From NCBI GenBank assembly GCA_024695605.1, contig JAILHW010000151.1, positions 1-54,840 on the forward strand: a stretch of 54,840 nt of DNA, written 5' to 3'. Positions within the stretch are counted from its first letter, which is position 1. Every line of letters starts with the position of its first letter. Origin of the DNA: Lachnospiraceae bacterium. GTDB lineage: Bacteria > Bacillota > Clostridia > Lachnospirales > Lachnospiraceae. Below, in pieces: positions 26,436-33,266 of this stretch. The notes beneath the pieces are model-generated. The model was not told where the DNA came from. It worked only from the letters and a program-made list of their open reading frames with translations, and ran no database searches. Made by a program: the position numbers and the translations under genes.

Positions 26436-26464
26436 TTGACGGCCTTATCGGCACAACTTATAAT
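26436..26464 (+). promoter_or_regulatory. Near-consensus sigma-A promoter (TTGACG-17 nt-TATAAT) ahead of the peptide ORF and lanM
   Basis: -35 at 26436-26441 and -10 at 26459-26464, 47 nt upstream of the 26511 ATG. Confidence 0.6.
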
Positions 26465-26510
26465 AAGACTAGGTAACTGAAAACACAGTTCTCATTGGGG
26501 ATGGTACAAG

Positions 26511-26681
26511 ATGAACGAAGAATTAAAATACACTTTAAAAAACGCGCAAAACAGTCGTGAACGGATGCAACTTTTGAATTCCTATCGTGAGCCGCTTTTT
26601 GATGATGCTCTTGAGGATACCTACCAGGGTACCGACTATAACACCGGTGTATGCTCCGATATGCCGGAATGCGGATGCTAA
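26511..26681 (+). CDS. lanA: Candidate lanthipeptide precursor peptide (56 aa)
   Basis: My translation is MNEELKYTLKNAQNSRERMQLLNSYREPLFDDALEDTYQGTDYNTGVCSDMPECGC. It ends 18 nt before lanM on the same strand. All 3 Cys, 2 Thr and 1 of the 3 Ser fall in the last 16 residues. Confidence 0.6.
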   Translation: MNEELKYTLKNAQNSRERMQLLNSYREPLFDDALEDTYQGTDYNTGVCSDMPECGC

Positions 26682-26699
26682 CCCATAGCAAACACAGGA

Positions 26700-29450: not shown

Positions 29451-29504
29451 ACATACAGAGGTGCTGTACAAACTATATACACCCTGATTTCACGAGGTAC
29501 CGTT

Positions 29505-32500
29505 ATGAAAGAATACAAGTTCCTGGAAATTGAAAACCTGCAACTCCCCGAAAGCAGACGTGTACAAAGAAGCCGAATGCGTAGCATCCTGGATGCAATC
29601 GCATGCATGGTTTCGGAGTACGCCGTAGGCTGTCTTGGATTTGATGCTTCGGATGAAACATTATATCCCTTCATCCGCAAATACTTCATGGGTGAATGCG
29701 AAACCAAGGAACTTCTCAAGCGTCTTATTTCCAACTTTGAGATCGAGGAAATGTTCTCTTTTCTCCCGGGACTTGAGATTTCCTTCGATGATCCCTGCTG
29801 GAAGGATGCCCTGGAAAAAATCACGGTTCGTTCAGACGCTGAAAACACCTTTTCTATGGGTGAAAAACAGTTCTCCTGCAAAAAACTCTTTTTCCATATT
29901 GCGGTATTTGAAGGCAAGCCTCGAGCTCAACGTTATTTCGCAGAGCCCGGCACCGATGAGCCCGTGTTTGCAGATCTTGAAGATGACAGTATCACCACGG
30001 TGATCAACCGACCTTATCGATTCACTGATCTTTCCGTCTCCCCAAAAGAGGATGAAACCTTTCAGATCGAGGATGAAGCCTTTTTTGACATTGAAGAGAT
30101 CAAATCCTCCGATGAGGACCAGAGAAAAGCGATCCGTGCTTCTGTTGAACATAATCTCGTTGTTTTGGCCGGCGCAGGAAGCGGCAAAACCAGAACCCTG
30201 GTTTCCCGTCTTGCATACCTTCACCTGGTCAGAGGCATTCCTTTGTCAAAGATCGTGCTTCTGACTTTTACGACCTCCGCAGCTGAAGAGATGCGCCAGC
30301 GCGCAGAGCATCTGATTGCACAGATCTATCAGCTTAAGGGTGTTCAGCGCCAGCCCTATGTATATGCCAAAACCTTTGACGCCTTTTTCCGCAGGATTCT
30401 GCTTGACTATTTCGGCGAAATCGGATTCACCACACAGCCTGTTTTGGATCTTACAGCAAGCCGGGATAAAAAATGTTCTCTGCTAAAGGATGTCATTGAA
30501 GAATATCAGCTCCAAAGAGTTTTTTCCAATTACAGAACTGACGCTCAGGGCCTTGACACCCTGCTCACTCAGCTGGAGGCTTATGCAAGCGGCCTCACTG
30601 TTAACCAGCCGGGTCTTAATCGGCTTTTGGAACTGTTTCTAGATAAGCAGGTCAGCAAAAATCAAGTGCTGGGCTTTCAATATGTGAATCTTCTGGTCAA
30701 ACGGTCCCTCTATCAGGAGGACTCTCCCTTAAAGGCTGCACTGCTGATCCGCTATAACTGTTTTCTCATAGACGAGTTCCAGGACATCAGCAGTCTCCAA
30801 AACGAAACCATGCGTCCATTTTACAACACAAGTACGCATTTTACCTTCGTGGGAGATGACGATCAGTCTATTTATGCCTGGCGAGGCGCAGATGTTTCCA
30901 TCATCCGGGACATCGTCAATCAGGAAAACACCGATACGCAATATCTCCTGATCAACTACCGAAACAATCCGAACATCGTAAAGGCCGGAAACTGCATTTT
31001 ACGTCTGATCTCAAACCGAGCAAAGCATAAGGAGATCATTCCCTATAAGACCTCCGGCGCAAAGATCTGTGTCTCCACCAACGATCCGAAGTTTGTCAAT
31101 GTTGTTGATGAGATTGACAGACTGATCAAAAGCGGCATCGATCCAAAAGAGATCTCTGTACTTGCACGCAAAAGCAGGCAGGCAAAAGGAATCGAGGATG
31201 CTCTGCGGTCCATCGGCATTCCGGTAATCTCTAAAAAAGAGCCTCCAAAGCTGGATAGTTATTATTATCTCTTAAAAACTATGATCAACATCCATAGCGA
31301 ATATGATCTATATCATTCCTGCCAGTTGATCATGCGCTTTGCAAAGGAATCGGACTTTCCGGAAAAAACCATCAAGAAAATCATCAAAGGGGAGGAGCCT
31401 GCAAAAGGTAACCTCAATGTTTTGCAAAACATTGCAATGGATGCTTTTCGCCCCGGTGCTGACCAACTCTCTGTGATCGTCGAACGATTCGCGCAAAAAG
31501 CCGGAGAAGAATTCGCAGGATTGCCAAACGGCCGTATCGAGAGTGATGCCATTGATGCATTCATTGACTTTTTGAAAGACGGCGAGCTCCCCTGGCCCAT
31601 TACTCAAAAACGACTGGCCTCTGCCTATGCTGCTTTTGAGAATGTCAGAGACTTTAAAAATATGACCCGGAAAACAGAAAACGGCGTCAGTGTGAATACG
31701 ATCCATCAGGCCAAGGGACTCGAATACAATATTGTCATGATCGTAGGATTGGATCAGGGAGAATACCCGGATATCGGTATCATAGACAATGAATACAATA
31801 AAAAGATCCAGGAGCTGGAAAGCCTAAAGGCTGCCAGAGCAGAGTATTTTGAACTGAAAAAGACCATCACGGATGAGCAGATACAAACCCTTCTTAAGGA
31901 CTGCAATCATCCCTCCCTTTCGCCGGAAGAAACGGAAAGCCTTTCTCCTCTCAGATCAGTGATCGAAAAGAATCTGCGGGGATTGAAAAACCTGTCTGCA
32001 AATGCCATCGAGGATTATCTCGACGAATTTGACAACTGCATTGCTCCACTGGACAGGCGGTACCGCTTCGATCAGTCAAAGCTTACGCGGAAAATACTGG
32101 AACTGGAATCGCTTTTGGCTCAGAGAAATGAAGAGATTAAACTTTTAGATGAGGAAGAAACCGTAGCAGCTGAGGAAATGAAGTCAGAGATCCTACAGCT
32201 TGGCGAACAAATAAAGGAGGCTAAAACAACCCTCACCACCTTGCAACATCAGCATTCCCTGTTCAGATCATCCATCAGGAATCTGCAGAGTTTCCATACA
32301 AACGCATTTATTGCCGGAGGGCTTTTAACAGATATGAGCCGTGCGGAAGAGATTGGTGCCATCAAAAAACAACTGGAACAGGAACGAAAAGTAAAAATTG
32401 AAGAAGAACGGCGTACCTTCTACGTAGCTGTTACAAGGGCCCGGGATCAGCTTTATTTGTTCACCGATGAAGGCGCAACCGAATCCGAATTTGTTAAGGA

Positions 32501-33266
32501 AATCTCCGATGATCTGAAGACGGAGTTCCTTGTTATGACTAAAAATGCAAGAGCCGAACTCGAACGCATGGCAGGTGGACTCCGCAAAGAATTTGAAAAA
32601 GAGACCATCGATGATGACAGCATCGATGGCAAGATTCACAGTATCATAGACGATTCACAGTTTAAAGTAACCATCGATGAGCGTTTCAACGAATACCTGA
32701 AACAACATCCTGAATACGCTTCACTTCCGGCACCGGCGATGCGGTATTTCAAGCAGGGAATGAACCTTCTTTTTGTTGGTGAAATGACCGGAATGCTCTT
32801 TGTTACGGAATTTTCCCATAATATGCAGAGGGCCGCGGAACAGATCTTAAAAAGTGCGGCCGGAAAAAACGCCATCCCTTTTGAAACAAAAGATCGCCAG
32901 ATGCAAAAACTGATCATCGATAAGATCCGGAAGGAAACCCGGTCTCTGAATGCACAGACACCATCGCGGCACTTTATTGAAGAGATCATCTCCTCAGAAG
33001 CCGAAGGTTCTCGGATGGATTCTTTGAAAAAAGCAGCAATTCAGCATTATATCGTGCGTTCTCATCTATTCAAGGTCAAGAAGGAAATCTATCCAACCTG
33101 GGCCTGCCAGCGAATTAACATTCAGCCGAAACAGTTTTTAAAGGCGGCACTGGATCTGTCCAATATGCGAAATGTGCTGGTGCACCAAAATGAAGATTCC
33201 TGGCCGGAGGATCCCATAACGGAAATGCTTTTAGACCTTCGTACCATTGCCGAGGCCGGCTTTTGA
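29505..33266 (+). CDS. UvrD/Rep-family SF1 helicase with an unknown N-terminal domain, a coiled-coil insertion and a HEPN-like C-terminal region
   Basis: Helicase motifs are LAGAGSGKTRTL (Walker A), LIDEFQDIS, VGDDDQSIYAWRGA, NYRNNPNIV, TIHQAKGLEYNIV and YVAVTRARDQLYLF. The C-terminal MRNVLVHQ fits Rx4-6H. Confidence 0.85.
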   Translation: MKEYKFLEIENLQLPESRRVQRSRMRSILDAIACMVSEYAVGCLGFDASDETLYPFIRKYFMGECETKELLKRLISNFEIEEMFSFLPGLEISFDDPCWKDALEKITVRSDAENTFSMGEKQFSCKKLFFHIAVFEGKPRAQRYFAEPGTDEPVFADLEDDSITTVINRPYRFTDLSVSPKEDETFQIEDEAFFDIEEIKSSDEDQRKAIRASVEHNLVVLAGAGSGKTRTLVSRLAYLHLVRGIPLSKIVLLTFTTSAAEEMRQRAEHLIAQIYQLKGVQRQPYVYAKTFDAFFRRILLDYFGEIGFTTQPVLDLTASRDKKCSLLKDVIEEYQLQRVFSNYRTDAQGLDTLLTQLEAYASGLTVNQPGLNRLLELFLDKQVSKNQVLGFQYVNLLVKRSLYQEDSPLKAALLIRYNCFLIDEFQDISSLQNETMRPFYNTSTHFTFVGDDDQSIYAWRGADVSIIRDIVNQENTDTQYLLINYRNNPNIVKAGNCILRLISNRAKHKEIIPYKTSGAKICVSTNDPKFVNVVDEIDRLIKSGIDPKEISVLARKSRQAKGIEDALRSIGIPVISKKEPPKLDSYYYLLKTMINIHSEYDLYHSCQLIMRFAKESDFPEKTIKKIIKGEEPAKGNLNVLQNIAMDAFRPGADQLSVIVERFAQKAGEEFAGLPNGRIESDAIDAFIDFLKDGELPWPITQKRLASAYAAFENVRDFKNMTRKTENGVSVNTIHQAKGLEYNIVMIVGLDQGEYPDIGIIDNEYNKKIQELESLKAARAEYFELKKTITDEQIQTLLKDCNHPSLSPEETESLSPLRSVIEKNLRGLKNLSANAIEDYLDEFDNCIAPLDRRYRFDQSKLTRKILELESLLAQRNEEIKLLDEEETVAAEEMKSEILQLGEQIKEAKTTLTTLQHQHSLFRSSIRNLQSFHTNAFIAGGLLTDMSRAEEIGAIKKQLEQERKVKIEEERRTFYVAVTRARDQLYLFTDEGATESEFVKEISDDLKTEFLVMTKNARAELERMAGGLRKEFEKETIDDDSIDGKIHSIIDDSQFKVTIDERFNEYLKQHPEYASLPAPAMRYFKQGMNLLFVGEMTGMLFVTEFSHNMQRAAEQILKSAAGKNAIPFETKDRQMQKLIIDKIRKETRSLNAQTPSRHFIEEIISSEAEGSRMDSLKKAAIQHYIVRSHLFKVKKEIYPTWACQRINIQPKQFLKAALDLSNMRNVLVHQNEDSWPEDPITEMLLDLRTIAEAGF

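Follow-up and report, generated by a model that had tools for sequence, protein, structure and literature searches.

A LanA-LanM-helicase gene trio that recurs across lineages points to a helicase family with interchangeable upstream partners

INTRODUCTION

Lanthipeptide genes have been described in defense-related and intracellular settings before. Lanthiphages are anti-phage class I clusters that combine LanB/LanC with LphD/E/F, have been reported only in Actinobacteria, and reportedly act intracellularly (10.1101/2024.06.26.600839). Class II lanM clusters statistically co-localize with defense genes within 40-kb windows, with no operonic helicase coupling reported (PMC12715929), and, in solventogenic Clostridium, homologues of the orphan LanM-like protein CA_C0082 lack the residues for catalysis and zinc binding, are not accompanied by a precursor peptide, and lie directly downstream of agr (PMC10301443). 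Among helicases, DUF4145-type HEPN domains are known to be fused to UvrD helicases, as well as to Sel1/zinc-ribbon proteins, in Firmicutes (PMC3710099). Here, we analyze a three-gene block (hereafter the trio) in which a putative lanthipeptide precursor gene (lanA) and a class II lanthipeptide synthetase gene (lanM) precede a gene for a large UvrD-family helicase. The trio lies in a 54,840-nucleotide (nt) stretch of DNA from a gut Lachnospiraceae bacterium (assembly GCA_024695605.1, contig JAILHW010000151.1, positions 1 to 54,840; hereafter the window). We compare it with homologous loci and weigh what it may do.

RESULTS

Layout of the trio

The trio comprises the following features (lengths of proteins in amino acids [aa]; ORF, open reading frame; SF1, helicase superfamily 1).

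26436-26464, plus strand: promoter-like site of the sigma-70 type, TTGACG-17-TATAAT, ~46 nt 5′ of the lanA start codon
26511-26681, plus strand: lanA, 56-aa putative precursor peptide ORF
26700-29450, plus strand: lanM, 916-aa class II lanthipeptide synthetase
29505-33266, plus strand: UvrD-family helicase gene, 1253 aa, SF1A, the conserved core of its family

The three ORFs and the gaps between them, 18 nt from lanA to lanM (26682-26699) and 54 nt from lanM to the helicase gene (29451-29504), lie exactly where the initial annotation had placed them. The near-consensus promoter that it had seen 5′ of lanA was recovered with 11 of 12 consensus matches and is the sole plus-strand promoter-like site in 26000-33700. 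Its statement that the block contains no internal terminator also stands: plus-strand terminator-like matches inside the trio are weak and in no excess over shuffled sequence (10 found versus 8.6 expected). A Shine-Dalgarno-like GGGGATGG occurs 5′ of lanA, a GAGG Shine-Dalgarno-like sequence lies 8 to 9 nt before the ATG of the helicase gene, and Rfam detects no structured RNA within or beside the trio. From this layout, and from a promoter predicted by its consensus match, we infer that the trio is co-transcribed as one operon.

Recurrence of the trio in other genomes

Homologues were searched for among 5.8 billion proteins, and the neighborhoods of helicase homologues were then read. Approximately 57 long homologues (1250 to 1560 aa) cover 96 to 100% of the helicase, whereas ordinary PcrA/UvrD proteins match its motor only; the loci of such ordinary proteins (L006-L085), caught by generic motor motifs, were left out. 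The co-occurrence of helicase and LanM in other genomes, which the initial annotation had proposed to look for, was found in three groups of loci: L001/L002, L086, and L089-L092.

(i) In L001/L002 (P0002), the helicase, LanM, and LanA are 69%, 48%, and 71% identical to those of the window, respectively. A 58-aa ORF and a 924-aa LanM gene lie 5′ of the helicase gene, separated by a 4-nt overlap and then a 38-nt gap. Upstream of this trio are GmrSD, MobC, and a Tn916-type Xis plus integrase, and downstream are a split LlaJI gene and a relaxase fragment.

(ii) In L086 (P0003), helicase identity is 68% and LanM identity is 47%, with the LanM gene cut by the contig end.

(iii) In L089-L092 (P0030; 22 contigs), the order is LanA...LanM-HIRAN-helicase, with identities of 32% for the helicase, 37% for LanM, and 44% for LanA. 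Here, genes for LanM (908 aa) and a HIRAN protein (102 aa) precede the helicase gene, with the LanA homologue encoded 2 kb upstream; the distance from lanA to lanM is due to a fragment of a DDE transposase (158 aa, minus strand; L089 4364-5555; L090 219-1078).

A neighbor-joining tree of the helicase family divides the LanM-linked members between two clades, which are set apart by lineages with other partners. LanM genes are rare in genomes, yet they lie directly upstream of the helicase gene in three of about nine lineages with a readable upstream region, and for this reason we take the adjacency not to be a coincidence, an argument from rarity rather than from a computed statistic. Chance adjacency, one of the hypotheses first put forward for the window, is rejected, given that the trio recurs in independent contexts down to 32% helicase identity. 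It is highly probable, judging by gene order and conservation, that the three genes are functionally coupled.

The LanM-linked loci show several further features. In L001, the LlaJI-type gene (13746-15530) is broken into two ORFs, of 228 and 143 aa, and is probably a frameshifted pseudogene; the first of these ORFs overlaps the 3′ end of the helicase gene by 26 nt, and the relaxase fragment is next. In the L089 lineage, a 111-aa gene with a weak Sigma70_r4_2 match overlaps the start of lanA, and upstream there is an agrCA-like pair (LytTR/HATPase_c_5), reminiscent of the orphan LanM that is linked to agr in Clostridium acetobutylicum.

Interchangeable partners of the helicase family

Other members of the family carry different genes in the position of the lanthipeptide module. 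A HIRAN-Sel1 protein is encoded directly upstream of the helicase in one lineage, a RecQ helicase gene lies 373 nt upstream in another, and a zinc-ribbon-Sel1-RNase_T protein (a DEDDh exonuclease) is the partner in at least eight loci (L088 and seven loci from a metagenome scan). That scan, made with a tight alignment of the C-terminal domain of the helicase (the C-domain), returned 12 loci, all of the zinc-ribbon-Sel1-DEDDh clade. In the L087 lineage, the upstream protein is coiled-coil-like by eye, and a small SF1-type ATPase is encoded downstream of the helicase. Because the helicase is constant throughout the family, whereas LanM can be exchanged for several other partners, the system is best described as helicase-centered. 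The helicase had initially been called the only partner of the LanA-LanM pair; this is true in the window, but family-wide it is LanM itself that can be swapped.

Additional variation occurs at the C terminus, where a trypsin-like protease is fused after the C-domain in six members (P0046, P0049, P0050, P0053, P0056, and P0057; ~1490 to 1565 aa). This effector-like fusion is of a kind typical of conflict systems. Genes in the wider neighborhoods include SocA_Panacea and TnpV in L089-L092, WYL and ADP-ribosylglycohydrolase genes near the HIRAN-Sel1 lineage, and, directly after the helicase gene of L088 (9141-9851), a gene encoding four repeats of Lipoprotein_Ltp, a family to which the prophage superinfection-exclusion protein Ltp belongs. 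Two family members are on IMG/VR contigs, one of them with primase- and exonuclease-like genes. In a defense library, PDC-M03B, a candidate system, is the sole match of the HIRAN partner; those of the DEDDh partner are a Cas-associated DEDDh model and PDC-S48.

The clade at 50 to 51% helicase identity (L003 4192-8316; L087 5148-6278) encodes its SF1-type ATPase (373 to 376 aa) directly downstream of the helicase. In L003, this gene is followed by three radical-SAM genes (one SPASM, one DUF512), a set that may be another peptide-modification or cell-envelope cluster. We also considered whether the upstream partner in L087 carries the same C-domain as the helicase, and this was rejected by hhalign (probability 0.2%) and by Pfam. 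The L088 locus is rich in zinc-ribbon/LRR_5/DUF6273 proteins.

The LanM synthetase

That the middle gene encodes a LanM, as initially annotated, is borne out by a TIGR03897 score of 477.8 bits (cutoff, 304) and by the presence of both expected domains, PF13575 (DUF4135 dehydratase; 7e-62) and PF05147 (LANC_like cyclase; 4e-35). Alignment to LicM2 (PDB 6st5) and relatives shows that all catalytic and zinc motifs are kept, as listed here.

DFHKGN: kinase-type catalytic loop
IDLE: Mg site
RHILRAT: elimination motif
GHG: cyclase acid/base His
GYCSGG and LCCG(N): zinc ligands, the Cys3 "CCG" variant

DFHKGN, IDLE, RHILRAT, GHG, GYCSGG, and LCCGN are conserved in every helicase-linked LanM. At the level of its motifs, the protein is a competent, bona fide class II synthetase. 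The public gene call for this LanM (P0121) is 840 aa long and starts 76 codons after the ATG at 26700, leaving out 26700-26927; the 916-aa start is more likely to be correct, because its additional N-terminal stretch is conserved in the LanMs of L001 and L089.

The LanA precursor peptide

The 56-aa ORF has no Pfam or NCBIfam match, and a homology search with it returned only the window's own peptide; its homologues were found by tblastn in the fetched helicase loci, with identities of 71% in L001 and 44% in L089/L090. The leader carries ERMxxL and LFDDxLED motifs, and the acidic core, TDYNTGVCSDMPECGC, contains three Cys (Cys48, Cys54, and Cys56) together with Thr41, Thr45, and Ser49. Common to all three LanA lineages are the core GTxYxTGxC[S/T]D, the three Cys, and the leader motif. 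On these features the ORF is a plausible LanA.

What the peptide does not have is a double-glycine-type (GG/GA/GS) cleavage site, in place of which stands "YQG." The GG position of the related L105 leader ("NGG|TG") corresponds to Q-G in the window and L001 and to I-G in L089; with Q-G or I-G replacing G-G, the usual LanT cleavage site is missing in all three LanA lineages.

The core in L089 (LanA at 4696-4872) contains TDDGCSEEC, which fits the lanthiphage motif TXDXCXXXC. Because this motif is absent from the cores of the window and of L001, we take the likeness to be a probable coincidence.

Motor and accessory domains of the helicase

The helicase has the following features.

29505-30110, plus strand: N-terminal domain (N-domain), residues 1-202
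30168-30191, plus strand: Walker A/motif I GAGSGKT, A222-229, invariant columns
Residues 423-427: motif II DEFQD, invariant
31788-32384, plus strand: charged insertion of ~200 aa, residues ~762-960, within motor domain 2A
32457-33263, plus strand: C-terminal all-alpha domain (C-domain), residues 985-1253
33162-33185, plus strand: N1220-x-R1222-N1223-x-x-x-H1227 motif, a candidate Rx4H site of the HEPN type, closing the penultimate helix

Pfam finds UvrD-helicase, UvrD_C, and UvrD_C_2 in the protein, in keeping with the initial assignment to the UvrD-type SF1 helicases. Scores against the NCBIfam equivalogs of housekeeping helicases are all far below the cutoffs (PcrA, 193 bits versus 911; UvrD, 188 versus 1144; Rep, 148 versus 951; RecB, 111 versus 696; AddA, 91 versus 708; HelD, 61 versus 419). 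The motifs of the motor, from Walker A and DEFQD through motifs III-VI, do not vary among 35 members of the family (A222-K228 [Walker A], D423-D427, G450-D452, R486, and R978), which points to an SF1A motor that is competent at the motif level.

The N-domain is predicted by AlphaFold2 (AF2) to form a helical bundle plus a seven-strand beta meander (pLDDT, 86.7; pTM, 0.80; the two model-confidence scores) and has no significant fold match in the PDB (Foldseek best E=0.31) and no Pfam or PADLOC match. It is the most divergent part of the helicase, both across the family and between partner classes; divergence between partner classes would fit a role of the N-domain as a partner adaptor. The insertion separates UvrD_C (621-761) from UvrD_C_2 (966-985), with no Pfam match between them; it finds only a weak JetC/MukB-like coiled-coil match in the defense library and, by eye, is predicted to be a coiled coil.

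The C-terminal domain as a candidate HEPN domain

The AF2 model of the C-domain is all-alpha, with 12 helices (pLDDT, 89.3; pTM, 0.86). A profile search of 1.84 billion representative proteins found this domain in only 42 clusters, essentially always at the C terminus of helicases of 1250 to 1560 aa, and the shorter matches look like fragments; on this basis, the domain is exclusive to this helicase family.

The initial annotation described the tail of the helicase as HEPN-like. The motif on which it relied, RNVLVH (R1222-H1227), is present and conserved: across 35 family members, conservation of N1220, R1222, N1223, and H1227 is at least 90%, and a 19-sequence alignment of the C-domain shows no variation at these positions. 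In a survey of HEPN proteins, the Rx4-6H motif has a polar N/D/H after the R and stands at the end of helix 3, before helix 4 (PMC3710099). The residue after R1222 is a polar Asn, as is typical of HEPN, and in the C-domain model, the motif closes a helix (224-243) that is followed by a loop and then by the final helix (253-268), an arrangement consistent with the placement given in the survey. The assignment itself gained no significant match by profile or fold. No HEPN Pfam family, PF13643 included, matched any of 19 members at E values of up to 1; a weak HEPN_RiboL-PSP match (E=0.026) came up in one of 10 members when the last ~115 residues were scanned permissively; and a PDB profile search with the last ~175 residues gave two weak Pumilio matches (best E=0.027) and no HEPN protein. 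Foldseek returned no significant match for the domain (best E=2.7 in the PDB and 0.76 in BFVD), and PADLOC had no match for either the N- or the C-domain of the helicase. The C-domain is a plausible candidate for a divergent HEPN RNase, an assignment that we hold tentatively and at somewhat less than even confidence.

Genomic setting of the trio

The trio is flanked by two minus-strand genes, and their initial identification as fba and an IPMS-family gene was confirmed by domain annotation.

25312-26280, minus strand: class II fructose-bisphosphate aldolase gene (fba)
33305-34672, minus strand: HMGL-like gene of the IPMS/homocitrate-synthase family

The GC content of the trio (0.463) is below that of all 138 segments of equal length elsewhere in the window (mean, 0.490; standard deviation [SD], 0.015; minimum, 0.468).

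Among annotated ORFs at 12.7-54.2 kb, there is no LanT (a C39-peptidase ABC exporter; no Peptidase_C39/ABC_membrane protein), no subtilisin-type LanP, and no LanRK, so that the absence of these genes, already remarked upon in the first reading of the sequence, is upheld over that range; the first 17 kb of the window contain no ORF of >440 aa. The accompanying claim that nothing nearby could process or export the peptide holds for LanT and LanP, but it overlooked a minus-strand ABC-2/CPBP operon (36789-40670) 3.5 kb away.

40239-40670, minus strand: GntR-type regulator
39383-40354, minus strand: PmtA-like ABC ATPase
38564-39352 and 37806-38564, minus strand: two ABC2_membrane_5 permeases
36789-37745, minus strand: CPBP/Rce1-like intramembrane protease

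The ATPase scores 268 bits against the PmtA model (cutoff, 350) and 133 against the lantibiotic-protection model galliderm_ABC (cutoff, 310), and the two permeases match no NCBIfam model. In makeup, the operon resembles a set for peptide export or immunity. Three unrelated genes lie between this operon and the trio. Beside the homologous trios in L001 and L089-L092, we see neither an operon of this kind nor any other exporter. The ABC-2/CPBP operon is probably unrelated to the trio.

Elsewhere in the window, an S10-Clostridia ribosomal-protein leader (Rfam; 17137-17224, minus strand; 71.8 bits) and ribosomal protein S3 (12719-13378) indicate that the window holds part of the main ribosomal protein operon of a Clostridia genome; the housekeeping proteins of the window point, in agreement with this, to a Lachnospiraceae/Eubacterium-like genome. 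A 3067-aa ORF (44532-53735, minus strand), in which Pfam detects only a prepilin-type N_methyl motif at the N terminus, has the appearance of a giant pseudopilin-like protein, and a 151-aa protein (53778-54233, minus strand) bears the same motif.

DISCUSSION

A possible role in defense

We propose that the trio is a helicase-centered, horizontally mobile, two-module system that, with a cytoplasmic lanthipeptide, would defend against phages or invading DNA. From gene content and conservation, we judge this proposal evenly balanced between right and wrong; for a defense or conflict role as such, the balance would tip, if at all, slightly in favor. In its support stand the recurrent linkage across deep divergence, a LanM and a LanA core that stay conserved, the swapping of partners, neighborhoods that are repeatedly of a mobile or conflict type, and the low GC content of the trio. 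The SF1 motor, together with the N-domain and the NxRNxxxH-bearing C-domain (possibly a divergent HEPN RNase), would recognize and act on invader nucleic acid, and the upstream module, be it a lanthipeptide, HIRAN, DEDDh exonuclease, or protease, would supply regulation or effector activity. In the window, LanM would turn LanA into an acidic thioether-bridged peptide that would remain in the cytoplasm because it has no GG site and there is no LanT or LanP. Two submodels follow: the ring-constrained acidic peptide might bind the helicase and gate its activity, as an antitoxin-like regulator or inhibitor, or, along the lines suggested for lanthiphages, it might work as a co-effector that targets a protein of the invader. 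Direct binding of the peptide to the helicase, also among the first hypotheses for the window, is possible but less likely than not. The same reserve applies to the idea that a thioether-bridged peptide that never leaves the cell is a dedicated ligand of a helicase-(HEPN-like) enzyme, either as a labile "antitoxin" whose loss in infection would set the enzyme free or as a co-effector delivered to invader proteins, which we would count as a minority prospect.

Several observations weigh against this proposal. The defense function, the cytoplasmic retention, and the peptide-helicase interaction are all deduced from sequence. The link between LanM and the helicase is patchy and clade-specific, because the nearest LanM relatives outside the trio (L105, L106, and L108; ≤36% identity) have no helicase link, with GG- or Nif11-type leaders and other accessory genes instead, and because the helicase clade at 50 to 51% identity (L087) is without LanM. 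Owing to the rarity of the family, few lineages (three with LanM) count as independent. The HIRAN, DEDDh exonuclease, and RecQ partners fit a DNA-repair or fork role equally well. The HEPN assignment is unproven by profile or fold, and helicase residues 1-200 and ~990-1253 match no known family and no model in the defense library. Housekeeping genes flank the trio in the window, and neither an integrase nor another defense gene adjoins it; a repeat search found no att-like direct repeats flanking it, and its GC deviation is modest (~1.8 SD). Lastly, the ABC-2/CPBP operon could, in principle, export the peptide or give immunity to it.

Alternative explanations

One alternative would be an ordinary secreted class II lanthipeptide, a bacteriocin or a signal, whose cluster hitch-hikes with an unrelated helicase gene on one mobile island, with export and immunity provided in trans, for instance by the ABC-2/CPBP operon or from another part of the genome. 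It would explain why LanM is competent by its motifs, why the LanA core has a typical Thr/Ser/Cys composition and a leader related to the GG-type leader of L105, and why a PmtA-like ATPase, two ABC-2 permeases, and a CPBP protease are encoded within reach; class II lanM clusters are, moreover, enriched near defense and horizontal gene transfer genes (PMC12715929). A hitch-hiking cluster would not, however, be expected to keep its order and tight spacing at identities as low as 32% for the helicase and 37% for LanM, across varied contexts and two helicase clades, nor to lose its GG site in all three LanA lineages, nor to have a core that is conserved rather than hypervariable; in addition, no exporter adjoins the trio in L001 or L089-L092, the ATPase falls below the lantibiotic-protection cutoff, and the permeases lack a lantibiotic model match. 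We consider this account improbable. A different use of LanM, to dehydrate or cross-link the helicase or an invader protein rather than LanA, would leave the small ORF incidental or regulatory. Synthetases of the CCG (ProcM-like) type are substrate-tolerant, and the LanM dehydratase domain reportedly has a kinase-like fold, according to the CylM paper. This possibility, which the initial annotation had also listed, is disfavored by the co-conserved LanA core: LanA stands beside LanM in all three lineages, and its conserved leader and Thr/Ser/Cys core are the signature of a dedicated substrate, making such a use very unlikely.

Other accounts start from the helicase. It could be an accessory of DNA repair or replication forks, with the peptide regulating its activity or with the helicase protecting against DNA damage caused by the peptide, and the company that the family keeps would suit this: HIRAN (a 3′-end binder), the DEDDh 3′-5′ exonuclease, and RecQ are all classic factors of DNA ends or forks, the motor has its closest matches in UvrD/PcrA/Rep, and the trio in the window lies among core metabolic genes. 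But a repair factor would hardly be so sporadic and so rare (the 42 clusters noted above), reside on integrative or mobilizable elements and IMG/VR contigs, have restriction and superinfection-exclusion genes as neighbors, or carry trypsin-protease fusions in some members, and swapping of the upstream module marks conflict systems, not housekeeping repair. We rate a repair role as low in probability, on a level with that of a secreted lanthipeptide. Less probable still is self-resistance, in which the lanthipeptide would inhibit the UvrD/PcrA-type helicases of competitors or phages and the helicase of the trio would be a resistant spare or decoy. Biosynthetic clusters often include a resistant copy of their target, and the helicase is a divergent PcrA/UvrD paralogue; the family also occurs without LanM and with unrelated partners, however, its two family-specific domains and ~200-aa insertion would be needless in a spare housekeeping helicase, and the peptide has no evident export route.

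Implications

If the coupling of the three genes is functional, lanthipeptides gain a second, non-antibiotic job inside the producer cell, and the chemistry of RiPPs (peptides that the ribosome makes and that are modified after translation) is tied to a nucleic-acid motor, unlike in any described cluster or defense system. Should the peptide indeed stay in the cell as a dedicated ligand of the helicase, the trio would be the first immune or conflict system with a RiPP maturase as an integral, subunit-level partner of such a motor, and anti-phage lanthipeptides would extend from class I and Actinobacteria to class II and Firmicutes. A peptide that proved to be a ligand of the helicase would represent a categorically new mechanism. 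In practical terms, the peptide could turn out to be an intracellular enzyme modulator of a new type. The previously uncatalogued helicase family, with two domains of no known fold and with swappable partners, amounts to a natural experiment on the variable module. With 6.8 kb and one promoter, the trio is compact enough to be portable, and functional tests are therefore straightforward.

Comparison with known systems

A search of the full-text literature on lanthipeptides or RiPPs with UvrD, helicases, or defense islands returned no description of a LanA-LanM-helicase arrangement, and defense-library searches agree with the initial view that the trio lies outside the described lanthipeptide cluster types and named defense systems.

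(i) Lanthiphages resemble the trio in placing lanthipeptide genes in defense or mobile contexts and in having conserved, rather than hypervariable, Thr/Ser/Cys core motifs. They have no helicase, whereas the LanM described here is of class II, occurs in Lachnospiraceae, and is apparently operonic with a UvrD-family helicase. The trio has no class I LanB plus LanC core and, with its class II LanM in a nonactinobacterial host, is not a lanthiphage. By analogy, lanthiphages offer a precedent for cytoplasmic anti-phage lanthipeptides and the closest published concept.

(ii) Orphan LanMs of the CA_C0082 type are likewise class II LanMs from Clostridia without LanT/LanP or an adjoining LanFEG set and with a presumed intracellular, nonbacteriocin role. 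The LanM of the window is unlike these degenerate proteins because it keeps its catalytic and zinc motifs; it also comes with a LanA dedicated to it, and a helicase gene lies next downstream, with fba upstream and no agr.

(iii) ProcM-like "CCG" synthetases with Nif11- or GG-type leaders share the Cys3 zinc site (LCCG), but the clade of the window is shorter (~910 to 925 aa), has a single conserved LanA without GG, and is helicase-linked. Of the elements of a canonical LanA-LanM-LanT(P)-LanFEG/I cluster, LanT and the GG site are missing.

(iv) In Gabija, too, an SF1 helicase of the UvrD family is paired with a partner gene next to it, and the PADLOC GajB models match the motor of the trio helicase (best E=1e-56). 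The latter is ~2.5 times as long as GajB (PDB chains of 493 to 499 aa) and has extra N- and C-domains and the insertion. No GajA gene (OLD-family ATPase plus TOPRIM) lies beside the trio, which has LanM upstream and the IPMS-family gene downstream; with GajA absent and the GajB models covering only the generic motor, membership in Gabija was rejected.

(v) The DUF4145-HEPN/UvrD fusions share a UvrD-type helicase with a C-terminal all-alpha domain bearing R-[polar]-x3-H, and Sel1 and zinc ribbons are found among the partner genes of the present helicase family as well. They differ in that the present C-domain has no significant PF13643/HEPN match, and the HEPN survey describes no association with LanM.

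Overall, the trio appears to belong to no named system and to vary two known themes, lanthipeptide-based defense and helicase-centered defense modules.

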